DNA of 64,000 nt from a virus (Duplodnaviria; Heunggongvirae; Uroviricota; Caudoviricetes): the IMG/VR virus record IMGVR_UViG_3300044796_000394; one strand, given 5' to 3'. The notes under the pieces were generated by a model, which ran no database searches, was not told the origin of the DNA, and saw only the letters and a program-made list of their open reading frames with translations. Made by a program: the position numbers and the translations under genes. Below are positions 82 to 55,706 of the stretch, in pieces (position 1 is the stretch's first letter; the number at the start of each line of letters is the position of its first letter).

Positions 82-747
82 ATGAAGAGGTATTTTGACC
101 GCATTGTATCCTTCGTTAACAATGAACGTGATAAGAAGTTCCTAGAAAATCTGCCGGGTAGCTCAGAAGTCATTCAAATTGAATGTAACCCAATCCACTT
201 GCCAGTTTCGGCAATGGGACACATTCAAACCCACGGTGATGATTTCCCCTTCGAGAGCATCTTCTACACCGAAGCCGACCAAATCCTCTATTGTACAGAC
301 CTTCCCGGTGTACTGGACAAGTGCGATGATACAACCTACGTGGTGCCTCACCGGTTCGTTAAGCTCCCTATTGCCGATAGACCGATGTTTACAACCAAGA
401 AGTACGATTTAGAGTCGCCGATTGTAATGTTTGATGGACGACCTTTTGAAATTCGCCATTACGTCGGAAGGGACAATCCAGAAAAAGAGCGGTTCTATCA
501 GGTTAAGAATAAATGGAGGGCATTTGGTGGTACATGGATTGCCAAACGCAATTTGTTCATGAAAACCAAGTTCAAGTTCGTGGATTACCAGCCGATTGAG
601 GAAGCTTGTTTTTCAATGTTTACAGATGATAGAAAGATGTATCGGACTTACGATCCTTATGATTTGTTCGTAGATCATTTGAGTGGATTTGAGCAGATAG
701 CTAGGGATTGTGGGATGGACATTTTGACATTGCCGGGAGGTTGGTAA
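82..747 (+). CDS. hypothetical protein (221 aa)
   Basis: Intact ORF with phage-like codon usage. It ends in a TAATG stop/start overlap with the next gene. No recognisable motif. Confidence 0.5.
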   Translation: MKRYFDRIVSFVNNERDKKFLENLPGSSEVIQIECNPIHLPVSAMGHIQTHGDDFPFESIFYTEADQILYCTDLPGVLDKCDDTTYVVPHRFVKLPIADRPMFTTKKYDLESPIVMFDGRPFEIRHYVGRDNPEKERFYQVKNKWRAFGGTWIAKRNLFMKTKFKFVDYQPIEEACFSMFTDDRKMYRTYDPYDLFVDHLSGFEQIARDCGMDILTLPGGW

Positions 748-1451
748 TGTACTCTGATTACGTCAAAAAATTAACTGCTGCTTGTGAAAAACGAAACTGG
801 AAATTAGACGGACAATATGAATTTCTGTCTATTAGGATCAATGAAGGGGCTAAAAAATCCGTTTGTTTTGCTGCTGGCATTCATGGGGACGAACCTGCCG
901 GGCCTGAAGCTATACTGAAATTTGTCAAAGAGGGTTCGGTACCTGATGATGTGTTTGTGATGTTGATGCCCGTGATCAACTCTTGGGGATATGCCAAAGG
1001 TACTCGCAGGAACGCTGCTAGGAAAGACATCAATAGACGATTTTGTGATAAGGTGTTAACTGGCGAAGCGGCTATTGTCAGTGATCTACTTAAAGAACAT
1101 CCTGTATCAATGTTGTGTTCTATGCATGAGTGGCCCGGACAGAATGGGTTTTACATGTACGCTTCTGACAAAGAGAAGAAAGAAGCGATATTGGGCATTC
1201 CGAAGATAGCCAGCGAATGGTTCAGGATTATCAATAATCGTAAAATTAACGATGAGTTTGTTGAGAATGGTATTATTTGGCATCCTGAAAAGAAGTACCG
1301 AAACAATAAGAGCAAATCGACATTAGAAAACAGGGTATTTCTTGATAAAACGCATTATGTTTGTTTGGAAACGCCGAGTGAGACGGATTTAGGCAAACGT
1401 TGCACTTGCCAATTCACCATCATGGAATATATAATCAAAGGAATTCTCTGA
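747..1451 (+). CDS. M14-family zinc carboxypeptidase / AstE-AspA-like deacylase
   Basis: GIHGDEPAG motif (GxHGxExxG zinc site) and a downstream CSMHEW His/Glu. GGAGG ribosome-binding site 6 nt upstream. Start coupled to the upstream stop by TAATG. Confidence 0.6.
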   Translation: MYSDYVKKLTAACEKRNWKLDGQYEFLSIRINEGAKKSVCFAAGIHGDEPAGPEAILKFVKEGSVPDDVFVMLMPVINSWGYAKGTRRNAARKDINRRFCDKVLTGEAAIVSDLLKEHPVSMLCSMHEWPGQNGFYMYASDKEKKEAILGIPKIASEWFRIINNRKINDEFVENGIIWHPEKKYRNNKSKSTLENRVFLDKTHYVCLETPSETDLGKRCTCQFTIMEYIIKGIL

Positions 1452-20897: not shown

Positions 20898-22397
20898 TCA
20901 ATAAGACGAACTACTAGATCCGGTTTCACATGTTGAAACACGCATTCTCGGAAGATCGTACTTTAACCAATCACGATAAATCTTGGTAAAATCTCTTATC
21001 ATTTTTTCAATTGATGAACATAGGTCATTCATCCCGTCAATGGTAGCCTTCCAATCACACTTACAAGTAAACGCAAGAATAAAATCATTCAAATTTTTCA
21101 ATGCATTTTGAATTGGTGTAAAATAATCTTTAACAGTAGCAAAAGAATTCAGTATTGCTGTTCCAATTTTACAACAAGCTTCACTCTTACTGCAATAAAG
21201 ATTCTTAAGAGCAATCATTTCGTCATTCGTTTTATTGACTTCTTGGATGATAGCATTAGCACTGTAAGTAATAGTATTCAAACGATTGAATACAGCTAAA
21301 TTGGCAGCATCACACTGAGCTTGTCTTTCAGGAGGAGCAGCAACAGCATTTACTCTATCGCATAAGCAACCTACAATTTGCTGTCTCAAATAAGTGCAAA
21401 TGCTCTTACAGTTATCGTCTCCTCCTGCACACTGAGGAACTACGTTTTCGGGTGTATTGGTGTCAGTGAGGAGTTGTCCAAACTTGTTACAGCCTATTTC
21501 TACAACTTTGTTAAGTGCAAATTTCATCAATGCATCAATTTGCCTTCTTTCGGCTTCATCGGGGCTTATTCTTCTTGCACCTGAATCAACAGCGTATTCG
21601 TAATATAATCTTTGTGCTTCGGTAAATGTGCTTCTCGTAACACCAAACGGTGAAACTTGAATCGTATATTTTAAAACATCCGAAGTTAAGGTGCGGGAAA
21701 TACCAAACGCATCGGTATAATTAGTGGCGTCAGCACCCATTGTTTCGAATAACTTAATTACGCAAGCATCCTCTGCGGGAGTAGGAGTTGGGAAAAACAA
21801 AGCTAATGGTCCACCGCCGCCTTTTGGTCCACCTTTTGGACCACCTTTTGGGCCAAGTCCTCTTGGCCCGGTGCCCGGCGATACTGTTGCAGATGGTGCT
21901 GCAGGAACAGGAACGACTTGCGGTCTAATAATAGCCGTCGGCTTTGGAAGTTTAACTCCGGGTTGCTCGACGGAAGAGAAAGGCTCTCCTAGAGGGCCGG
22001 ATATAATTGGTTGGCCATTTGACGGCACAATTGGGCTTCCTTGTGGCGGCACCGTAGTTAACGAATATGGTCCTCTTGCACCACCAGTACTCATGCCTTT
22101 ATCATAACCCATACCTTGATCGCCAACAATAAGTTGTCCGTTGCCGAGGCGTCCATTAGCATATGGTTGCGCTGGCATAGGTATACCAGGACCAGTAGAT
22201 GGTGCTGGAGCAGGTTGCGGTCTGACCGTACCCGGAATTAATTGGCCAGTATTCCTATCAAATTGTGCACCATCGAGTCTTTGTCCTGCTCCATATGGCA
22301 TTGCACTATTTCCTTGTCCTGCCTGTGGCATTGGTGGGAATGGACCGAGAGGTCCGGGGGTGCCGGGGATTGGAGGTGTACCGGGTGGTGGTGCCAT
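20898..22397 (-). CDS. collagen-like / Gly-Pro-rich structural protein with Cys-rich C-terminal domain
   Basis: N-terminal 200 aa Pro/Gly-rich with GPKGGPKGGPKGGGGP. C-terminal globular part with about 14 Cys. Ends GSSSSSY. Confidence 0.6.
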   Translation of the reverse strand: MAPPPGTPPIPGTPGPLGPFPPMPQAGQGNSAMPYGAGQRLDGAQFDRNTGQLIPGTVRPQPAPAPSTGPGIPMPAQPYANGRLGNGQLIVGDQGMGYDKGMSTGGARGPYSLTTVPPQGSPIVPSNGQPIISGPLGEPFSSVEQPGVKLPKPTAIIRPQVVPVPAAPSATVSPGTGPRGLGPKGGPKGGPKGGGGPLALFFPTPTPAEDACVIKLFETMGADATNYTDAFGISRTLTSDVLKYTIQVSPFGVTRSTFTEAQRLYYEYAVDSGARRISPDEAERRQIDALMKFALNKVVEIGCNKFGQLLTDTNTPENVVPQCAGGDDNCKSICTYLRQQIVGCLCDRVNAVAAPPERQAQCDAANLAVFNRLNTITYSANAIIQEVNKTNDEMIALKNLYCSKSEACCKIGTAILNSFATVKDYFTPIQNALKNLNDFILAFTCKCDWKATIDGMNDLCSSIEKMIRDFTKIYRDWLKYDLPRMRVSTCETGSSSSSY

Positions 22398-23599: not shown

Positions 23600-23643
23600 A
23601 ACGTTATATAGGATTTCTTTTTCGTTCCATTCTAAATAACTTC

Positions 23644-36836: not shown

Positions 36837-37592
36837 ATGAAAAAATTATTTTTAGGCGTAGTGGCTGCGTTGCTGCTCGTCGGTCCGGCTTTTTCAGCCG
36901 AACCGGAAGTTAAAGTTCCCGTTGCAAAGGCCAAAGTAGCCGATGTGCCGGAACTTAAAGTCCCGACTGAAATGAAAGTTAAACCGGGTCGCCTGTTGCG
37001 AATTCCGGCTGAAACTGCTTGCAAAACCGTTATCTGGTACCTTGATTCCGCTGATGCCGATTTGGTAACTTTTGAATCAACTAAAGAAGCTGTATTTAGC
37101 AGCCCAGTACCCGGCAAATACAAAATTATCGTTTATACCGCTGCTGGTGATGTACCAAGTCAGCCATATGTTTGCGTAGTAACAGTAGAAGGTGATGTGC
37201 CTGTGCCGCCCACACCGCCCACTCCACCCGGCCCTGGTCCCGATCCAATTCCGGTGGATGTATTACTTCAAAATCTAGTTAAAGCGTATCAAGCTGATAC
37301 TACGGCTGATAAGGCTACAAAATTACAAGCACTTGTTACTTTGTGGAAAAGTGCTGCCAAAAACACAGTTAACGATGCCGACATCAAGACCACCGGAAAA
37401 CTTCTTGAAGTTCTCCACAATTCAGCTCAACAACTTTTGGGTAATGACTTAATGGGATTGAGAGAGGCCATCAGAGTTGATTTGGACTCAAAATTGCCGA
37501 AGACCGCAACAGCCGCTCTTGATGATGCTACTCGTAAAGCAATTGCCGTTCACTTTCAAAATGTAGCCGATGCGCTAGGGAAGGTTAAATAA
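36837..37592 (+). CDS. secreted protein with PT-rich linker
   Basis: Signal peptide MKKLFLGVVAALLLVGPAFSA, PVPPTPPTPPGPGPDP linker, GGAGG ribosome-binding site. Confidence 0.6.
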   Translation: MKKLFLGVVAALLLVGPAFSAEPEVKVPVAKAKVADVPELKVPTEMKVKPGRLLRIPAETACKTVIWYLDSADADLVTFESTKEAVFSSPVPGKYKIIVYTAAGDVPSQPYVCVVTVEGDVPVPPTPPTPPGPGPDPIPVDVLLQNLVKAYQADTTADKATKLQALVTLWKSAAKNTVNDADIKTTGKLLEVLHNSAQQLLGNDLMGLREAIRVDLDSKLPKTATAALDDATRKAIAVHFQNVADALGKVK

Positions 37593-39823: not shown

Positions 39824-40184
39824 GTAATCTTTCCATAATCGCATGACCTAACGGATTTCCCCGGCCAATAATGCGGAATCCAAGATTCAGATAAAAGTTT
39901 CCAAGTCGATTAAGGTTTGTTCGTTTGTCGAGTGGCGATGCTAAAAGTTTGATTCTTAATTTTCTTGCATCTGCCTCTGCTACCAATGCTTTCATGGCAG
40001 CAAGAGCTAATCCCTGATTTCTTTTCTTTCCTGAAACACGAAGAGAAGCAAGGTCAATAAGGTCGCCTGACACTTGATAAAGTAACCTTGCACCATTAAT
40101 GTTTTTCTGATGATGCTTTTCAGCGAAATCTTCATCAGAAAATGGCAGGTTCTCGGACTCTAAATAGTATTGCTTGAAGTTCAT
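39810..40184 (-). CDS. GNAT N-acetyltransferase
   Basis: RNQGLALAAMKALV (motif A). Confidence 0.55.
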   Translation of the reverse strand: MNFKQYYLESENLPFSDEDFAEKHHQKNINGARLLYQVSGDLIDLASLRVSGKKRNQGLALAAMKALVAEADARKLRIKLLASPLDKRTNLNRLGNFYLNLGFRIIGRGNPLGHAIMERLPTSS

Positions 40185-40843
40185 TGGTCTGAAATTTGAA
40201 ACTCCTTCTTTTTAGCGGCAATCCAAACCTCCGTAATAATGATAAATTTTATACCCCGCTTCTTACAGTACTCGTTGCAATAACTCCATTTAGATTCATT
40301 TATCGCCAAGTTTGTTTGATTGACCGGCTTGATTTCCCACACTTCTTTTCTTCCATCGGTAAAGTGAACACGCAAGTCAGGAAGATAAGTATGTCTCTCA
40401 CCATCAAAGAAATACTCAATTTCCAGCGGCTCTACTTCGTAACCAATTACATCATCCATCTTATCCAGAATGCGATAAACATCTAATTCCCATCCCGAAT
40501 TGTAATGGAGCTTTCTGCGATTTTTTGGCGAAACGTGCCACCCTTCCTTGAATGATATTTTCTTTTTCTTACGATTAGGATCTTTGGGATCACGCCAGAT
40601 CAATGATTTCATTTGACAAGTTTTAGGCAACACTTCTTGTGGATGTATTGATTTGAAATGTGCTCTGACATCTCTAACGGGAGCACAGCAACGAGCCAAG
40701 GGGCATACGACGTATTCTCGCCCCTCTTCGTGGTTATTGCGTATATGTTCTTTGAAACTGGCCCAATCGGGCTGCAGGACGCCACAGACGAAGCATTGAA
40801 ATTGTCTCTTGCCGCCGTGGTTATTGTTAAATGGTAATGGCAT
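40181..40843 (-). CDS. C2H2-type zinc-finger protein fused to a PD-(D/E)xK nuclease-like domain
   Basis: FQCFVCG...H..H zinc finger at the N-terminus. LPDLRVHF...EVWEIKP matches PD...E-x-K. Confidence 0.45.
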   Translation of the reverse strand: MPLPFNNNHGGKRQFQCFVCGVLQPDWASFKEHIRNNHEEGREYVVCPLARCCAPVRDVRAHFKSIHPQEVLPKTCQMKSLIWRDPKDPNRKKKKISFKEGWHVSPKNRRKLHYNSGWELDVYRILDKMDDVIGYEVEPLEIEYFFDGERHTYLPDLRVHFTDGRKEVWEIKPVNQTNLAINESKWSYCNEYCKKRGIKFIIITEVWIAAKKKEFQISDQ

Positions 40844-42350: not shown

Positions 42351-43547
42351 ATGGCCATTAAAAGCTTGCTGGACAACGACATCTATAAAATTTTCATGCA
42401 ATATGCCGTACTCAAAGAGTTTCCGGGTACGCATGTCCGTATGGCTTTCATGAACCGTCGTAAAACCGATGTTCTCTCAAAATCGCTTTTGAAATCTTTA
42501 AGGGAAGTCGTAAATTCCGTGAAAGGCATGAAAGCCGATTCATGGGAATTGTCACACATCCATAAACACTACCCATTCCTGCCAAATTGGTATATGGATT
42601 GGCTTAGTGAGTTTGCCCCAAATCCCGCCCACGTTAATATAACGGAAAACGGTGAAATTACCGTTGAAGGCCCGTGGGAACAAGCCATGTGGTGGGAAAT
42701 TCCCATCCTCTACACAATCAGCGAATTGTTCTGCGGGGAAATCGATGCTGAAATAGGACACATTCCTCGTAGCGAAATAGTCAAATCCACATTGACCAAA
42801 ATGGAAATTCTGAAAGGTCACTACAGTCGCTATGGCGAGGCAATCGAACACGATCCTTGTCAATACGTTCAATTCGGCTGTCGTCGTCGTCGCTCATACG
42901 ATATTGAGGATGAAGTTGTTCGTACAATGAAAAAGGCCGATCATCCGAATATGCTCGGTATTAGCAACATCCACTTGGCAGCGAAATACGATATTAGGCC
43001 GGTGGGCACAATGGCTCATGAGTTCGTTATGGGTGTCAGTGCATTGAAAAGCCTGCGATATGCCAACCGTGAGGCAATGGAGACATGGCTTCGTGTTTTC
43101 AAGGGCGAATTGGATATTTTCCTGCCCGATACTTTTGGAACGAATGTGTTCCTGAAAGACTACACTCGCCAATTTGCTCAAGCATTCAATGCGACTCGAC
43201 AAGATAGCGGGTCAGCGTATGAATACGGCGAAAAACTCATTAACCATTACAAAACAGTAAAACTTGATCCAAAAACCAAATCGATCACATTCAGTGATGG
43301 GTTAACTGCTACAGAATCAACGAACATCCAGCAACACTTCTACAATCGAATTAAAAGAGCTTACGGCATCGGCACACACTTCACTAACGATTTCATGAAC
43401 AGACCTGCCATGAATATCGTGATGAAGTTAACACATGTCAACGGAATTCCGGTCGTCAAGCTCAGCGACGTTCCCGGCAAAGCCTGTGGCGATCCCAATG
43501 CTCTCAAAGCAGCAAAGTGGGTGTTTCTCGGCGAACCTTTAGTATAA
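42351..43547 (+). CDS. pncB: nicotinate phosphoribosyltransferase
   Basis: LLDNDIYKIFMQYAV and GPWEQAMWWEIPILYTISE align block by block with E. coli PncB, with similar length (398 aa). Confidence 0.85.
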   Translation: MAIKSLLDNDIYKIFMQYAVLKEFPGTHVRMAFMNRRKTDVLSKSLLKSLREVVNSVKGMKADSWELSHIHKHYPFLPNWYMDWLSEFAPNPAHVNITENGEITVEGPWEQAMWWEIPILYTISELFCGEIDAEIGHIPRSEIVKSTLTKMEILKGHYSRYGEAIEHDPCQYVQFGCRRRRSYDIEDEVVRTMKKADHPNMLGISNIHLAAKYDIRPVGTMAHEFVMGVSALKSLRYANREAMETWLRVFKGELDIFLPDTFGTNVFLKDYTRQFAQAFNATRQDSGSAYEYGEKLINHYKTVKLDPKTKSITFSDGLTATESTNIQQHFYNRIKRAYGIGTHFTNDFMNRPAMNIVMKLTHVNGIPVVKLSDVPGKACGDPNALKAAKWVFLGEPLV

Positions 43548-43556
43548 GGATTTACG

Positions 43557-44045
43557 ATGAAGTACGTTGAATGTCCCGACTTGTTCATTCCTGAATCCAT
43601 CGATGATTACAAGAAAACCTTGTTTCTCGGTGGGGGAATTTCAGGTGTGGGCAATTGGCAAGCGGAGATGGTGAGATTGTTGCAGGATACGGAGTTAATC
43701 CTCATCAATCCCCGGCGAACCAACTTCGACGTTAATAATACAAAAATGACTGTGGAACAAATCCAGTGGGAATATCACCACTTGAATTTGTCTCATGCTC
43801 GTATGTTCTGGTTCCCACCGGAAACTCTGTGTCCGATCACCTTATTTGAATTAGGGAGATTCTCCGTACAGAGCAATCCCCTATTCGTAGGGTGTGATCC
43901 CAAATACGCACGGTCGCTTGATCTCGAAGAGCAAATGAAGCATGTCCGAAGATCGGAAGTCATGTTTGATTTGGAGATTCTCGCACGACAGATTATTTTG
44001 TATGCGAAACATATGTCAAGCAACGGGCGATACTACGCCACTTAA
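43557..44045 (+). CDS. nucleoside 2-deoxyribosyltransferase-like (Nuc_deoxyri_tr2 fold) protein
   Basis: TLFLGGGISG N-terminal glycine loop and a later FELG block. Typical phage NDT-like size (162 aa). Confidence 0.45.
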   Translation: MKYVECPDLFIPESIDDYKKTLFLGGGISGVGNWQAEMVRLLQDTELILINPRRTNFDVNNTKMTVEQIQWEYHHLNLSHARMFWFPPETLCPITLFELGRFSVQSNPLFVGCDPKYARSLDLEEQMKHVRRSEVMFDLEILARQIILYAKHMSSNGRYYAT

Positions 44046-44332
44046 CCACTACTACTAGAAGAAGACGAACTTGATGAATGAATAACTTTGTGTGTTGGAA
44101 AATTGCTCACTCTTAACGGTACGCCCGGCAGCAATCCAATTGGTGGAGGCACGAAGTCATCAAAATCAGGATGCCGCAAATTCGGTAAAGGAATTGGAAT
44201 TCGTCTCGTTCCCCACGGCCAAAGTAATGGTAAAAAATACCTCATTCCCGGTGGTGGCACCATTGGCGGTGGTGCTTGCGGTTGTGGTTGTGGTTGCGGT
44301 TGTTCGATTGGTGGCGGTGGTGGTAATTGCAT
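44042..44332 (-). CDS. proline-rich protein with C-terminal poly-serine tail
   Basis: PPPPPIEQPQPQPQPQAPPP, ending THKVIHSSSSSSSSSSSG. AAGGA ribosome-binding site. Start chosen at MQLPPP. Confidence 0.5.
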   Translation of the reverse strand: MQLPPPPPIEQPQPQPQPQAPPPMVPPPGMRYFLPLLWPWGTRRIPIPLPNLRHPDFDDFVPPPIGLLPGVPLRVSNFPTHKVIHSSSSSSSSSSG

Positions 44333-44354
44333 ATTATTCCTTTTCTTGTGGTGT

Positions 44355-44732
44355 TTAACTACTACTGCTGCTACTACTATCACTTGACGAAGATGATGAG
44401 TGGCTAACTACGTGAGTGGGTCTTATGGGTTCAGGTCGTAATACCATGCCGGGTGGTGTATCAAAAAATGGGAAATCTGGTAACTTAAATTTAGGCCACC
44501 ACTTTGGCGGAGTTGGAATTGGCGGAATCGGTATCGGCGGTATTGGTGGGAGTGGGAACGGCCAAGATCGCCGTGGTGTCCCCGGAGGTGTCGGGGGCGT
44601 CGGCGGTGAAGGTATTCCTCTCGGTGGTTCAGGCGGCATAGTCGGCGGCAATAGCGGCATCATTGGAGGCCCATAAGGCCCAATTGGTCCAAAAGGCGGT
44701 GGTGGTGGAAGCGGGGGTAAAGGTGGATTCAT
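44355..44732 (-). CDS. proline-rich protein with C-terminal poly-serine tail (paralog)
   Basis: PPLPPLPPPPP...PIPPIPIPPIPTPP, ending THVVSHSSSSSSDSSSSSSS. AAGGA ribosome-binding site. Confidence 0.5.
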   Translation of the reverse strand: MNPPLPPLPPPPPFGPIGPYGPPMMPLLPPTMPPEPPRGIPSPPTPPTPPGTPRRSWPFPLPPIPPIPIPPIPTPPKWWPKFKLPDFPFFDTPPGMVLRPEPIRPTHVVSHSSSSSSDSSSSSSS

Positions 44733-45136
44733 TATTTTCCTTGTGGGGTTGTTTGATCTTTTTCACGTTCAAAAAATGCTGAAAGTTGAGCCAATACTTC
44801 ATCTCTAGAGATGATATGAACTTTCGGCAAATCTGTTTCTCCAAAAATCATTTGAAGTTGAACGCCTTGTCCCATTTTGTTCAGGTTAATAGCAGTAAAG
44901 TGGGCTTCTTTAAGCCATCCCGGTGAATTGTCTTCATCATCCAAGTCTTTCATCTTAGCAAACATTACACGACTGCCTTCATCACCACCGAAAACCGAGT
45001 CTTCGAAAGTAAAGAAAAATGAAAAGTTTCCACCATCCAACATTAACTTCAATTTATTTTTTTGAATAGAATCCAATGCCGCTTCTAGCAAAACGGAAAG
45101 ATTCTTTCGGCCAAAAATTTCATCCATGTTGATCAT
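44732..45136 (-). CDS. hypothetical protein
   Basis: 134-aa ORF. Confidence 0.45.
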   Translation of the reverse strand: MINMDEIFGRKNLSVLLEAALDSIQKNKLKLMLDGGNFSFFFTFEDSVFGGDEGSRVMFAKMKDLDDEDNSPGWLKEAHFTAINLNKMGQGVQLQMIFGETDLPKVHIISRDEVLAQLSAFFEREKDQTTPQGK

Positions 45137-45172
45137 GCTCTATTTAGCCCCTCATGTCACAATCATTTCAGA

Positions 45173-45200
45173 TTGATTGTCATTCTTGTTTCGTTATAAT
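45173..45200 (+). promoter_or_regulatory. sigma-70-type promoter
   Basis: TTGATT, 16-nt spacer, TATAAT. A second TTGACT-N18-TTTTAA sits at 45222-45251 ahead of the dNMP-kinase operon. Confidence 0.5.
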
Positions 45201-45265
45201 AACACCCAGAATAATAGAATTTTGACTATCTGAAATAGGCGAAGCTTTTAATTTACGGAGTATTG

Positions 45266-45862
45266 ATGTTAAAATATATTGGTTTTGGTGGACAATATCG
45301 TTCGGGAAAAGACGCTGCTTCTGATCATTTATATGCTCGTTTGAGTGGAAAATGGAAACGTGCCTCGTTGGGTCATGCCGTCAAAAAGATTTTCGCTGAA
45401 CACTTTAACGTAAGTATGGAATTTATTGAGGAATGGAAAGTCAAAGAAGAAGTGCCGCCCGGATTCAATTGCCCTTTGCGAGATGGGTTAATTAAAATTG
45501 GGGATGGCTGGCGGGACACCAAGGCTGATATTTGGATTAGAAAATTATTCGATAACAATAAAGATAATTTGATTATCTCAGATGTTCGTTATATTAATGA
45601 AGCTGAGCATGTTCGTAATAACAATGGTATTATGAATTTGGTTTGGCGACCGGGATATGAAAACAAAAAACCATCACGATCAGAACAAGAATTGATGCAA
45701 TTTGTCAAAAGGCTTCAAAAAGAGCCAAGCGGTCGTATTGATCATGAAAAATATCCTGACGTTCCTTTTGACTTCTGGTTAGTTAATGATGGAAATTATA
45801 GGGATTGGCTGGAAAAGGTTGATAACATCGTATTGCCATATGCTCTTAAAAGGTTAAGTTAA
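45266..45862 (+). CDS. deoxynucleoside monophosphate kinase (T4 gp1-like)
   Basis: GFGGQYRSGKDAAS P-loop resembling T4 dNMP kinase GVKRSGKDT. About 200 aa. Confidence 0.6.
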   Translation: MLKYIGFGGQYRSGKDAASDHLYARLSGKWKRASLGHAVKKIFAEHFNVSMEFIEEWKVKEEVPPGFNCPLRDGLIKIGDGWRDTKADIWIRKLFDNNKDNLIISDVRYINEAEHVRNNNGIMNLVWRPGYENKKPSRSEQELMQFVKRLQKEPSGRIDHEKYPDVPFDFWLVNDGNYRDWLEKVDNIVLPYALKRLS

Positions 45863-46608
45863 TGCATTTCGTTATAAGAAACAAAGATTTTATTTTCACA
45901 GAAACCGTATTGCCGGGCGATGATGTTCTTACATCCAATGGCGGTAAGGTATTTCAAGATTACATCCAAGAAACTAAAGTTTTATGTGGGCCTTACTCTG
46001 AATGTAAATTTCCACAAAGTTACTTCGGCAACATCCGACCTTGGGATTACGAGCGGATTTTAGAATACGGGGACTTCGCTGCCAATCAAAAGGTTTTAGA
46101 ATGCGGTGGGCTTCATAGCTATTTCGCTATTGCCACTTCCCAAAAAGTTAATCATTACACTTGTACTGATAGTTTTTATTGGGCGACTCGTGACTATGCT
46201 CAAAATCCACAATTACAAAGTCCTCAAGAGTGGTGTAAGTATTTGATTGGTAAAGGTCGTGGCAAACTTCACGCCGAAGAAGCCGACTTGCAATCCATGA
46301 AGTATGCCAACGAACAATTTGATAGAGTTGTCTGTATCAGTGTGATTGAGCATGTACACGAAGATCGCAAGGGTATTCTGGAAATGATGAGGGTTCTTAA
46401 GCCGGGCGGTTTATTGCTTTTGACAACTGAATACAATCCCACTTGGTCTAAGCCTTACGCTGAAACAGACGGCAGTTATTATCGTGTATATGATCAAAGT
46501 GACTTGAGTAATCTTTTGGCTGGTCTTGATGTTGAAGTAATGCAAGCCCAAGGTGGGGATGTTCGTGACGGGCAATTTACTACTACGTTCATACGGATCA
46601 GAAAATGA
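45862..46608 (+). CDS. class-I SAM-dependent methyltransferase
   Basis: VLECGGLHSY (motif I), DRVVCISVIEHV, LKPGGLLLLT (Methyltransf_11 pattern). Confidence 0.65.
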   Translation: MHFVIRNKDFIFTETVLPGDDVLTSNGGKVFQDYIQETKVLCGPYSECKFPQSYFGNIRPWDYERILEYGDFAANQKVLECGGLHSYFAIATSQKVNHYTCTDSFYWATRDYAQNPQLQSPQEWCKYLIGKGRGKLHAEEADLQSMKYANEQFDRVVCISVIEHVHEDRKGILEMMRVLKPGGLLLLTTEYNPTWSKPYAETDGSYYRVYDQSDLSNLLAGLDVEVMQAQGGDVRDGQFTTTFIRIRK

Positions 46609-48014
46609 ATGTATCTGACATCATTAATAAGTTCAAAATTCAAAATGCCAAAACGAGACTGAGAATAGCAGTTATTGGTGATACGCTCGTTGATGAATAC
46701 CGTTACGGCCAAGTCAACCGGATTTCGCCCGAATTTCCCGTTCCGATATTAACTTCCGAGTCAGACGCCAAGGAATCTTGTCCCGGTGGCGCTGCGAATG
46801 TATGCCATCAAATGACACACATGAACGCCGAAGTCTTTCTCGTAGGCTTTGTGGACAATGTCACACGTAAATTGTACGGTCAGCAAACCTTCAATATTGA
46901 CTACTGCGTTGATTTGCCAAGCGGCTTTGTACCAATCAAAGTTCGATTTTATGAAGGCGACTTTCCTCTCCTGCGATGGGATATTGAAAGTCCTAACTAT
47001 GGCGAAAAAGATTTAAGTGAATTGAGACGAAAAATTCTCATTAATTTTGAATCTCTCATCAAAGAGGGATTGAGTGCGGTCATTATTAGTGATTATAATA
47101 AAGGCATCTTTGACGAAGCTACCGCTCGTTCTCTCATGCAATTATGTACTTATTACCGCATTCCTACTATCGTTGATCCCAAGAAACCACCAGTGAGCAA
47201 ATGGTTCGGGGCTACAGTCATTAAGCCAAATGCGGCTGAAGCCAAGACGCTAACTGGTGAATCTACTATTTCATCTCAATTGAGTAAATTATGTGAAAAT
47301 GCTCATACGAGTATGATCACCCAAGGCGGCGACGGTGTTATTTGCCAAATTGGAAAAGAAATTTTTGAATACATGTCCCCCGTACCACGATCTAAGGAGG
47401 TGAACAGTGTTATCGGGGCGGGGGACTGTTTTATAGCAATGTTAACTCTTGGGATGTCGCACGGTATGACAACTCAAGAAGCTGTAGCATTGGCATTTGA
47501 AGCCGGTGCTGTTTACGTTAAAGCAAGACATAATAAACCAATTCATCTTAATGAAATACTCGCAAGAGTTGATGTTGAAGGCTCTCGTATCGTCAAAGCC
47601 GAAGAGTTAAACTTTAACAAAAACGAACGTATTGTTTTCACAAATGGTTGTTTTGACGTTATTCATGCTGGTCACTTGGATACTTTGAAATTTGCCAAAT
47701 GTCAAGGTGATCGATTGATTGTCGGTGTTAATTCGGATGCTTCTGTCAAGCGACTTAAGGGTGATAAGCGACCCATTTATGGACAAGATGAACGTGCTAG
47801 ATTTTTAGCGTCAATGTATTTCGTAGATCATGTTGTGATTTTTGATGAAGATACACCAGCCGAATTGATTAATAAAATTCAGCCACACATTGTTGTTAAG
47901 GGCGGCGATTACTCTATTACGGATGTTGTTGCCGGTAATGCCAAAGTTGTTTTGTCGCCTCTCAGAAAAGGATACTCTTCAACTAATACAATTAATAAAC
48001 TATCTGACGACTAA
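46605..48014 (+). CDS. hldE: bifunctional D-beta-D-heptose 7-phosphate kinase / heptose 1-phosphate adenylyltransferase
   Basis: N-terminal pfkB/ribokinase-like domain (IAVIGDTLVDEY, GGAANV, GAGD). C-terminal cytidylyltransferase domain (VFTNGCFDVIHAGH, RLIVGVNSD). Confidence 0.8.
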   Translation: MNVSDIINKFKIQNAKTRLRIAVIGDTLVDEYRYGQVNRISPEFPVPILTSESDAKESCPGGAANVCHQMTHMNAEVFLVGFVDNVTRKLYGQQTFNIDYCVDLPSGFVPIKVRFYEGDFPLLRWDIESPNYGEKDLSELRRKILINFESLIKEGLSAVIISDYNKGIFDEATARSLMQLCTYYRIPTIVDPKKPPVSKWFGATVIKPNAAEAKTLTGESTISSQLSKLCENAHTSMITQGGDGVICQIGKEIFEYMSPVPRSKEVNSVIGAGDCFIAMLTLGMSHGMTTQEAVALAFEAGAVYVKARHNKPIHLNEILARVDVEGSRIVKAEELNFNKNERIVFTNGCFDVIHAGHLDTLKFAKCQGDRLIVGVNSDASVKRLKGDKRPIYGQDERARFLASMYFVDHVVIFDEDTPAELINKIQPHIVVKGGDYSITDVVAGNAKVVLSPLRKGYSSTNTINKLSDD

Positions 48015-49321: not shown

Positions 49322-49762
49322 TTAACTACCACTATCGCTACTACTGTCCATATTCATATCAAATGGCGGCGAATAAAAGTTCAACAATACCGTACCAGTC
49401 TTTGAAAGGTTGGTGAGTTGATGGATCGCCTCACCATCCAATCCTGAAATATCACCCTTGCGAAGATAATGCTGGTGATAGAATGACAACTCGCCCGGAT
49501 CTTCTTCTTTATAAAGCGTTTCCAGCAACTTGCCATTAACTACACGGATCACACAATTGCTACCTTGGTGATTGTGTACCGAACTTGTTTGGCCTTCTCG
49601 GAAGCAAATCAAAACGATTTCCATGTCGTCGTCACGAGAGATAGAAACTCTCGTATAAGGTTCGTCGCCGAAACTTACCGGCAAGTTCTTTAACTTGAAT
49701 TGGTAATTATAGGCAAAATTGGTCAGGGCTGATAGGTCGTAACTCATGTTATTAAATAGCAA
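49322..49762 (-). CDS. cupin, cysteine-dioxygenase type-I-like
   Basis: VLICFREGQTSSVHNHQGSNCVIRVVNGKLLE matches the CDO core (H.H...C...G.L.E). Ser-rich C-terminus. Confidence 0.55.
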   Translation of the reverse strand: MLFNNMSYDLSALTNFAYNYQFKLKNLPVSFGDEPYTRVSISRDDDMEIVLICFREGQTSSVHNHQGSNCVIRVVNGKLLETLYKEEDPGELSFYHQHYLRKGDISGLDGEAIHQLTNLSKTGTVLLNFYSPPFDMNMDSSSDSGS

Positions 49763-51427
49763 TTACCAACCAAATTCCTGTAAAAGTTTATGATGTGGTC
49801 TTTGTGTGTCGAACATCATTCTTGGCAACAAGTCAACATCTGGATCTAGATTGGCCAACAAATCGCCCGTTTCAATACCAGCTTCCAATTCTTTCCACAA
49901 TGCCTTAACGTCGTCACCCGAAAAACTCTTGTGAATGATATTAGCATCAGGCGTAGCACCGATTGGCATTTCCCGGTTCAAAACGTCAGAGATGTACAAT
50001 GCTATACTGAGGCAAATCACCAAGTCGTCATGCTTGTTCTTTTGTGCTTCGGCTCTTTGCTTTTCTTGATTGTAAATGAATGTTAACAATTCCCGAATAA
50101 TACGAACGCTTCGAATCTTGACAAGACGATTCAACATACACGTTTGTAATGCTTCCATACAAACTGGACGCAATACTTTATTCATGTTAACGCCGGGACG
50201 ATCTCTAGTTGCCCCTTGCGTAAAGTAAAGGTTGTCATAACTCAATGAGTGTTCAAGTCGTTCACAAACAGCTTGGCCCGGTCCCATTGAGTTTTCCACA
50301 ATAATCAAAGCATTGTTATAAAGTTTTCCCACATGCGCCAAAACTTGACTGAACTTATATGTCGGAATTGTCTTGGAATAAAATTCAGCCACTTGCGTTA
50401 ACGTGGAAATGTCCATGACAATAAAGGCGCAGTTATCGCCTTCTTGTCCAACACCCATAGCGGCATCGGCAGTAATGAGATATTCACGACCGGATTTAGG
50501 CATTTCCCAAACCCACATCGCACCGGGTTCGTATTTTGCATTCGGAAGTTCGTCTTCTTTGAAGCTTTCTTCGGGGATGATGTCCCATTCACCCATCATC
50601 TTTTTAATTGGATTAGAGCATTGTTTTTCAAATTCTTTGATAACTTCACCGGGAATGTAAGTATCACCGGAGCCGAGGAATGAACCTTCGTATTCCTGTG
50701 CGAAGCCTTTTTCGCCGATGTTAGCTCGTGTTCGCTTTTCCCATTCGGCATTGTTATAGTCGGGGTGTTCATGCCAGTCAATATGTACAACAAAAAACTG
50801 ACTTCTCTTGTCAATAGCCTTTTGGTATTGTTCGTAGTACCAACCACCGACGCCACCGATACCGTTAACCGTGGAGATGATAATAGCATTACCACCGGTT
50901 GAGAGCGTAGGATACATGCTCTTCCAGTGTTCTTCCATACCTTGAACGAACGCCGCTTCATCGATAATTAGATAAGTTAAAGCACGGGAACGAGCAGCGG
51001 CAGGAGTATAGAACCACATAACCGAACGAGTTTCAGCAAACTCTTTTTCGTGGTCGTTATCGTTGTTCATTTCCGGACGAAGCCATTCCGGAAGTTCATT
51101 CTTGGCATTAGCTACCGTTTTACCTACAGCTTTAGCTTCACGGTCAGTTTTAGAAGCAATGAGAATACGCTGATCGGTGTAGAAAATGCACTTCCATAAC
51201 ATCCACATAGATGTTACAGTGGTCAGACCGGCTTGACGGAATTTCTTAACAATGCTAAACTGATTAGATTCAAAGTCAGAGATAACTCGATTTTGGAAGT
51301 CGTATAGAACGAATGGTACCAAACCCTTTTTCGGGTGGGTAATCTGTAAGTACTTCTCAGAAAAGTACTTGAAACTATTTCGACATCTGATAAACTCTCT
51401 AAGTTGCTCGTCATTTAATTGGCCCAT
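49763..51427 (-). CDS. terminase large subunit (T4 gp17-like)
   Basis: FRQAGLTTVTS Walker A-like block, IIDEAAF Walker B, and a C-terminal nuclease-sized region. 554 aa. Confidence 0.85.
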   Translation of the reverse strand: MGQLNDEQLREFIRCRNSFKYFSEKYLQITHPKKGLVPFVLYDFQNRVISDFESNQFSIVKKFRQAGLTTVTSMWMLWKCIFYTDQRILIASKTDREAKAVGKTVANAKNELPEWLRPEMNNDNDHEKEFAETRSVMWFYTPAAARSRALTYLIIDEAAFVQGMEEHWKSMYPTLSTGGNAIIISTVNGIGGVGGWYYEQYQKAIDKRSQFFVVHIDWHEHPDYNNAEWEKRTRANIGEKGFAQEYEGSFLGSGDTYIPGEVIKEFEKQCSNPIKKMMGEWDIIPEESFKEDELPNAKYEPGAMWVWEMPKSGREYLITADAAMGVGQEGDNCAFIVMDISTLTQVAEFYSKTIPTYKFSQVLAHVGKLYNNALIIVENSMGPGQAVCERLEHSLSYDNLYFTQGATRDRPGVNMNKVLRPVCMEALQTCMLNRLVKIRSVRIIRELLTFIYNQEKQRAEAQKNKHDDLVICLSIALYISDVLNREMPIGATPDANIIHKSFSGDDVKALWKELEAGIETGDLLANLDPDVDLLPRMMFDTQRPHHKLLQEFGW

Positions 51428-55457: not shown

Positions 55458-55706
55458 TTAACCTAATGCTGTATCCCCTAACGTAAACGGCAAAACCGCA
55501 CCTTCTTCCATAGAAAGTGAAGATGAAGACGAAGAGGAGGAGGAGGAGGAGGAGGAACAAGGGTCATCATCTATAACATAATCAATACTATTAGTATTAT
55601 TAGTTGTTGCTGCTGTTTGAAAAGCGCCAACTAATCTACGCAAGCTGTAATTTGGATGCACTAGCGATTTGATTTTTCGTAATTCGATAAGGGTTGGGTT
55701 AGACAT
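55458..55706 (-). CDS. small protein with internal Ser13 tract
   Basis: DDDPCSSSSSSSSSSSSSLSMEEG encoded by a (GAG)n run on the + strand. Confidence 0.45.
   Translation of the reverse strand: MSNPTLIELRKIKSLVHPNYSLRRLVGAFQTAATTNNTNSIDYVIDDDPCSSSSSSSSSSSSSLSMEEGAVLPFTLGDTALG

Follow-up and report, generated by a model that had tools for sequence, protein, structure and literature searches.

Two adjacent minus-strand genes, here called ORF A and ORF B, were found at exactly the place that the original prediction had assigned to them (44042-44732) in the window, that is, the whole 64,000-nt stretch of phage DNA that was analysed. On balance, the evidence favors two real genes, which would be old, diverged tandem duplicates in the distal part of a three-gene unit headed by a gene for a 134-aa protein, and which would form an accessory insertion specific to this lineage; their proposed products are disordered binding proteins. 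The pair can be assigned to an established category, the lineage-specific accessory ORFan genes of phages. Its significance is modest, and its main value lies in the example that it provides of small low-complexity genes for which gene callers substitute the mirror frame.

Each of the two genes has its own AAGGA ribosome-binding site, as had been predicted, and this lies 5 nt before the ATG (Table 1). The arrangement AAGGA-N5-ATG occurs four times in the entire window, and two of these occurrences are those of A and B. An SD-like motif was detected upstream of 17 of the 49 confident genes in the window, AAGGA being the usual form where one is present. The ATG of A and the stop of the co-oriented 134-aa gene overlap (TAATG), and the stops of B and of the convergent nucleoside 2-deoxyribosyltransferase-like (Ndt-like) gene lie in one shared palindrome, TTAA. 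From TAATG to TTAA, A and B tile the insert, with the 22-nt spacer between them as the sole gap. The predicted proline richness with PPxP/PQ repeats was also found in both proteins.

Table 1. Positions of the features discussed in the text, in coordinates of the window
Feature	Position	Strand	Description
Ndt-like gene	43557..44045	+	Convergent; nucleoside 2-deoxyribosyltransferase-like, Pfam PF15891, E 1.6e-15; segment boundary
Lineage-specific 686-bp segment	44046..44731		GC up to about 0.54 vs 0.43 in the window; absent from the sole relative found
ORF B (from ATG)	44042..44332	-	96 aa, 28% Pro, pI 10; PPPPP at residues 4-8, QPQPQPQPQ tract, core and Ser tail
Ser tail of B	44048..44077	-	S10, then terminal Gly; TCN and AGY codons mixed
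Conserved core of B	44078..44170	-	PDFDDFVPPPIGLLPGVPLRVSNFPTHKVIH; alignment with A
Shine-Dalgarno of B	44338..44342	-	AAGGA, 5 nt before ATG, in the 22-nt A-B spacer
ORF A	44355..44732	-	125 aa, 38% Pro, pI 10; PPPPP at residues 9-13, conserved C-terminal core and Ser tail
Ser tail of A	44358..44399	-	S6-D-S7; TCN and AGY codons mixed
Conserved core of A	44400..44480	-	PDFPFFDTPPGMVLRPEPIRPTHVVSH; alignment with B, z about 6-7
Shine-Dalgarno of A	44738..44742	-	AAGGA, 5 nt before ATG, within the 3' end of the 134-aa gene
134-aa gene	44732..45136	-	Stop overlaps start of ORF A (TAATG); good codon score
Promoter-like motif	45134..45146	-	TAAATAGAGCATG; abuts ATG of the 134-aa gene
TAAATAR-NNN-ATG sites	13494, 15968, 15993, 39679, 45134, 48012		Near variants at 23633 and 55722
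Antisense Gly/Cys-rich mirror ORF	44088..44387	+	99 aa, TTG start; no SD, frame with stops across unit B, no family match; judged non-coding
Antisense Gly-rich mirror ORF	44416..44676	+	86 aa from GTG or 83 aa from ATG 44425; no SD, stops, conserved block outside; judged non-coding
Nucleotide/NAD-type cluster	42351..43547, 43557..44045, 45263..45862, 46605..48014		Strand of the HldE-like gene opposite to A/B
82-aa ORF	55458..55706	-	Internal run of 13 Ser, TCN-only, perfect (TCC)7

In each unit, minus frame 0 is the only one of the six frames that is free of stops. The stop counts per frame are 0, 4 and 12 (minus) and 8, 2 and 4 (plus) for unit A and 0, 3 and 6 (minus) and 7, 1 and 2 (plus) for unit B. 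A frame as open as minus frame 0 was obtained in 1.6% (A) and 5% (B) of dinucleotide shuffles, and when openness of any frame was counted, the values were 5% for A and 18% for B.

The similarity between the two proteins exceeds what their composition would produce, supporting the predicted tandem paralogy. In Smith-Waterman alignment (BLOSUM62), the non-Ser cores of A and B scored 61 to 65, against 27 ± 5.5 for shuffles (z about 6 to 7), and none of 5,000 shuffles equaled the observed score; plain BLASTP with composition adjustment gave E = 3.2. The alignment reads PDFxxF..PP..L..P(I/L)R-(gap)-PTHxVxH-Ser(n), and the N-terminal Pro-rich parts are no longer alignable. The shared LP(D/N)F core of the original prediction is thus confirmed as a region of similarity, but its register is not, PDF/PDF being the better pairing than LPDF/LPNL. 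The sequences just 5' of both ATGs are also alike (CCACAAGGAAAATAATG versus CCACAAGAAAAGGAATAATATG), indicating that the duplicated unit included the ribosome-binding site. In the ancestral unit, this SD sequence and an ATG would have been followed by a Pro-rich N-terminal region containing PPPPP, then by an aromatic/Pro core of the form PDFxxF..PP..P(I/L)R..PTHxVxH and finally by a Ser tail.

Identity between A and B at the first, second and third codon positions is 24, 24 and 14 of 38. Divergence amounts to a pS of 0.77 to 0.91 and a pN of 0.36, a contrast that is inflated because the minus-frame amino acids served as the guide for aligning the two genes. Ser, Leu and Pro are retained across multi-base synonymous changes, such as TCT/AGT and TTA/CTG. 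Orthologues flanking the pair, compared between the window and the only relative found (contig L004), have a pS of 0.62 to 0.74 and a pN of 0.22 to 0.24. The divergence of A from B is at least equal to this, indicating that the duplication is either old or fast-evolving. Since no homologue of A or B was found in the databases searched, the conservation evidence comes from one paralogue pair.

The relative L004 (ENA contig k141_3440140) was found via the 134-aa protein. When the 134-aa gene and the Ndt-like gene were used as synteny anchors, it was the one useful relative obtained, and its flanks share about 75% identical DNA with the window. In L004, the 133-aa homologue (66% identity) and the Ndt-like homologue (63% identity) are arranged tail to tail with a 16-nt overlap. 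The flanking genes are thus joined directly in the relative, and the 686-bp segment that holds A and B is specific to the lineage of the window. Whether the segment was gained in this lineage or lost in that of L004 is a matter on which the two genomes would fit either direction. The segment is richer in GC than the window, an excess that is partly trivial because it follows from the CCN codons.

Like phage morons and other accessory ORFan genes, the A/B block occurs in one genome but not at the corresponding junction of its relative, deviates in base composition, has no homologues and lies between conserved genes. It differs from them in that no convincing sigma-70-type promoter or intrinsic terminator was found within or flanking the block; instead of having its own promoter and terminator, it is attached to the end of a conserved upstream gene, to which it is coupled in translation. 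The pair would be an accessory insertion between two convergent genes of a phage of roughly 614 kb and as such offers a dated snapshot of how accessory genes turn over at such a site in very large phages of a little-sampled lineage. At the other end of the 133-aa gene, L004 carries a LAGLIDADG homing-endonuclease gene (257..1054 of the contig) between this gene and the dNMP kinase gene, where the window has a 126-bp spacer. Taken with the A/B segment and the overlap that replaces it, this indicates that genes have been gained or lost on either side of the 134-aa gene.

The window is a piece of a very large phage of ~614 kb; the gene adjoining the pair is on record on a 614,480 bp contig. The GC content of the window is 0.43. 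It contains a T4-type large terminase gene at 49763..51427; the nearest public match, with 41.6% identity, is the uncultured phage LR756511.1 (595 kb). No near-identical record was found among deposited phages. Profile searches placed NAPRTase, Ndt-like, dNMP kinase, methyltransferase, HldE-like kinase/nucleotidyltransferase and cysteine-dioxygenase-like genes around A and B. Several of these (NAPRTase family, Ndt-like, dNMP kinase and a PfkB kinase fused to a cytidylyltransferase-like domain, here called HldE-like) form a cluster of nucleotide/NAD-type metabolism, which may be a set for NAD salvage or replenishment or a set for DNA modification. A cysteine dioxygenase type I-like protein is encoded at 49322..49762 (-), adjoining the terminase gene, and the annotation lists a protein with a TnsA-like endonuclease N-terminal domain at 40181..40843 (-).

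Homologues of A and B were sought widely. Pfam, PHROGs and NCBIfam profiles gave zero matches for either protein (Pfam none even at E 5), and no homologue of A or B was found by a word-indexed search of 5.8 billion clusters, by tblastn against phage records or by pattern scans of IMG/VR, JGI metagenomes and GTDB genomes with the single proteins and with the A/B core alignment. An exhaustive phmmer search of A against 1.84 billion representatives likewise yielded no homologue. One IMG/VR match (L001) was discarded, as it covered the PPPPP/QPQ tract only. Nothing pertinent was found in the literature on phage Pro-rich or polyserine proteins.

This absence of homologues from all databases searched, together with the absence of the segment from the sole relative, is what would be expected if the segment were a non-functional low-complexity insertion, its open frames arising from C-rich composition or representing young or decaying proto-genes without a selected product. 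The low complexity of the DNA, the partial openness of several frames, the any-frame openness values given above and the lack of structure in the predicted products point the same way. However, both units retain an ATG, an AAGGA at optimal spacing and a frame that is open throughout. This is so although the synonymous sites of the two units have reached saturation (pS 0.91) and the replacement sites have not (pN 0.36), and the specific, non-repetitive elements PTHxVxH and PDFxxF are retained, as are the Ser runs across switches between both Ser codon families. Such an insertion is therefore possible but unlikely, and two functional minus-strand genes are the preferred explanation.

The original prediction held that expression of the complementary Gly-rich plus-strand ORFs would speak against the minus-strand genes. 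These ORFs (44088..44387 and 44416/44425..44676) might be expressed, for instance as microcin-B17-style Gly/Cys-rich peptides, by read-through from the NAPRTase and Ndt-like genes; their position 3' of two plus-strand genes would permit this, and a GCGCGCGCGC-type tract is present. The whole-codon log-likelihood slightly favors them (0.17 to 0.31 versus about 0 per codon), and the third-base choice at the Pro codons fits the Gly codon preference a little better. Codon usage failed as a discriminator of the strand, because the Pro and Gly frames have their wobble positions in common and Gly is the more frequent residue. Against the plus ORFs, their starts are TTG, GTG or an unsupported ATG, all without an SD sequence, and the plus frames have stops within each unit. 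The similarity between the paralogues is weaker in the wobble-matched plus frame (z 4) than in the minus frame (z 7), and this Gly frame is stopped just before the block of PTHxVxH and Ser. This best-conserved block lies outside the plus ORFs, except for the tail of the Ser run of A, which is overlapped by 44088..44387. Profile searches gave no family match for the plus ORFs, and no neighbor of the YcaO/cyclodehydratase type was present among the genes scanned. Expression of the plus ORFs is thus improbable, and the sequence evidence supports the minus frames of A and B as the probable coding frames.

The gene callers made a different choice. Three contigs cover the ORF A stretch with identical DNA (in window coordinates, L002 spans 44296..45502, L003 38557..49045 and L007 44352..45290), and ORF A was called on none of the three. 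The plus-strand calls differ between the contigs, with a 45-aa ORF on L002 and an 83-aa ORF on L003 and L007; the selection of the 83-aa ORF is a point in favor of the plus strand, and the disagreement between the calls is a point against it. For ORF B, L003 carries a minus-strand call. In a collection of 15 billion proteins, the A and B queries returned no self-match, and the exact B sequence was absent. That both proteins are missing from this collection may be attributed to the choice of the plus strand by the gene callers, and in particular ORF A is absent from protein databases of billions of entries because its Pro-rich frame was out-scored by the Gly-rich mirror frame. ORF A is therefore a clean example of a likely real gene missed by automatic annotation, and small low-complexity genes of huge phages may be systematically under-reported.

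Two further readings of the region were rejected. For a structured RNA, no Rfam match was obtained and the folding z was +1.2. For an A-B fusion by a +1 frameshift in the Ser-coding region, the frame of B is open back to 44407, but a shift-prone site is absent.

The 134-aa gene upstream of the pair has a pN of 0.22 and a pS of 0.62 relative to its L004 homologue. Its product had no family match in profile searches, and a PDB sequence search was empty. The AF2 model of the protein is of low confidence (pLDDT 42) and was too poor for a fold search for a Pro-binding module.

The 134-aa gene starts with a motif of the form TAAATAR-NNN-ATG. The window contains six such motifs, where 0.46 would be expected, and in each the ATG is an ORF start. 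In all five of these genes that were covered by the SD survey, an SD sequence is absent. The motif resembles the T4 late promoter, TATAAATA, and its proposed promoter role is based on this likeness. It looks like a T4-late-type promoter that would give leaderless or nearly leaderless messages. At the 134-aa gene, TAAATAGAGCATG likely marks the start of a transcription unit 134aa-A-B. The 134-aa gene, starting directly behind TAAATAGAG, would be the first, leaderless or near-leaderless cistron of this unit. ORF A would be coupled translationally to it through TAATG while having its own AAGGA, and ORF B would follow after 22 nt with its own AAGGA-5 nt-ATG.

The two products (13.4 kDa for A and 10.5 kDa for B) are predicted to be small, basic, soluble and intrinsically disordered, with a polyproline-II style of chain. 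Disorder is suggested by the AF2 model of A (pTM 0.14, with one helical turn and otherwise essentially no secondary structure), by the absence of a hydrophobic segment in either protein (maximum 19-residue hydropathy of 0.33 and 0.87) and by the pI of about 10. Most likely, the conserved aromatic/Pro core would bind a host or phage partner, and the Ser tail may serve as a flexible hydrophilic end and possibly as a site of modification. Our best guess is that A and B are polyproline-II binding proteins co-expressed with the 134-aa gene. No Pro-binding module or Ser-modifying enzyme was identified among the neighbors in a Pfam/PHROGs scan of about 20 flanking ORFs.

Each protein has PPPPP near its N-terminus and many PP motifs. 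Translation of polyproline is established to depend on EF-P (PMC11611912, PMC6544042), and stalling of the ribosome on A and B is expected unless EF-P acts, so their synthesis should depend on this factor owing to the N-terminal PPPPP. The likeness to other EF-P-dependent polyproline proteins is one of a translation property and not of a protein family.

The extended, polyproline-II-style Pro-rich segment is also reminiscent of the Pro-rich spacers of TonB, but A and B lack both the N-terminal membrane anchor (maximum hydropathy below 1) and the C-terminal domain of TonB. Their long homo-Ser runs of mixed codons resemble the polyserine linkers of bacterial glycoside hydrolases and serine-rich repeat proteins. 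In those proteins, however, the runs join folded domains or form long glycosylated regions of secreted proteins, whereas in A and B, which are small and have no signal peptide, the run stands at the very C-terminus. Elsewhere in the window, a 499-aa protein (20898..22397, -) has a Pro/Gly-rich disordered stretch in its first 200 residues and a Cys-rich C-terminal domain, ends in SSSSSY and had no PHROG match. Further Pro-rich linkers are encoded at 37146..37298 (PPTPPTPPG, a string that also occurs in A) and at 63405..63644 (PQ repeats).

If the genes are real, the Ser tail could itself be the functional point, as a substrate for O-glycosylation, phosphorylation or RiPP-type modification. Heptosyltransferases that act on Ser are known, as are phage proteins with glycosylated C-terminal extensions, and heptosylation via ADP-heptose is a candidate because the HldE-like gene (PfkB plus cytidylyltransferase, 46605..48014) lies 2 kb away. 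The Ser tail is kept at the extreme C-terminus of both paralogues despite the codon-family switches, which suits this explanation. No glycosyltransferase, kinase or RiPP enzyme was identified among the scanned neighbors, however; the HldE-like gene is on the other strand, and the nucleotide/NAD-metabolism cluster explains its presence equally well. For RiPPs of the LAP/TOMM and lanthipeptide types, YcaO, cyclodehydratase and dehydratase domains were absent from the about 20 flanking ORFs scanned by Pfam or PHROGs, several of which carried no annotation. A modified tail as the point of the two genes therefore has little probability, compared with the preferred reading of disordered proteins that bind through their core.

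It is very improbable indeed that A and B form a new family of intracellular Pro-rich phage effectors, a counterpart of the eukaryotic Pro-rich antimicrobial peptides (Bac7, oncocin, drosocin, apidaecin), in which the core would dock on the translation apparatus or the chaperones of the host, host EF-P would gate synthesis through PPPPP and the Ser tail would be modified. Like these peptides, A and B are Pro-rich, basic, extended and foldless, and their local PIRPTH and PFPLPPIPP strings resemble strings of that type. The antimicrobial peptides, however, are eukaryotic, secreted, about 18 to 60 residues long and strongly Arg-rich with PRP repeats, whereas A and B are 96 to 125 aa long, have 5 Arg each, a net charge of only about +2 to +3 and a Ser tail, and lack a PRP repeat. 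Were an effector role to be established, a new family would be defined by the conserved core and the Ser tail.

The Ser tails differ from their earlier description in several respects. C-termini of 11 to 16 serines had been claimed; these numbers are the totals of Ser per protein, and the real runs are S6-D-S7 in A and S10-G in B. Encoding by AGT/AGC does not hold either, since both tails mix TCN and AGY codons (TCA TCA TCT TCG TCA AGT GAT AGT AGT AGC AGC AGT AGT AGT in A; TCA TCA AGT TCG TCT TCT TCT AGT AGT AGT in B). The longest perfect trinucleotide repeat in the tracts is (AGT)3, and Tandem Repeats Finder detected weak arrays only (scores of 30 to 58) in the A/B region. These observations indicate that the A/B DNA is not particularly prone to slippage.

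The suggestion that the nucleotide composition allows variation in repeat length was likewise not borne out. Gene A is covered by three datasets (JGI 3300045923, SRR35360338 and SRR35908228) and gene B by SRR35360338 only, and all of them are 100% identical to the window DNA; an apparent 22-nt difference at the start of L007 is an Illumina adapter. Thus, neither the long perfect short-unit repeat nor the length variants of a contingency locus were found in the datasets covering A (three) and B (one).

The Ser run at 55458 uses TCC/TCT codons, as had been stated, and is TCN-only. Its predicted independent origin is plausible, as its codons differ from those of the A/B tails and its protein has no similarity to A, but the premise that the A/B tails are AGT/AGC-only was incorrect. 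In contrast to those tails, the Ser tract of this 82-aa ORF is a true trinucleotide repeat, which could vary in length. A terminator-like hairpin plus T-run lies 3' of the ORF, and a TAAATAAG motif lies 5' of it.
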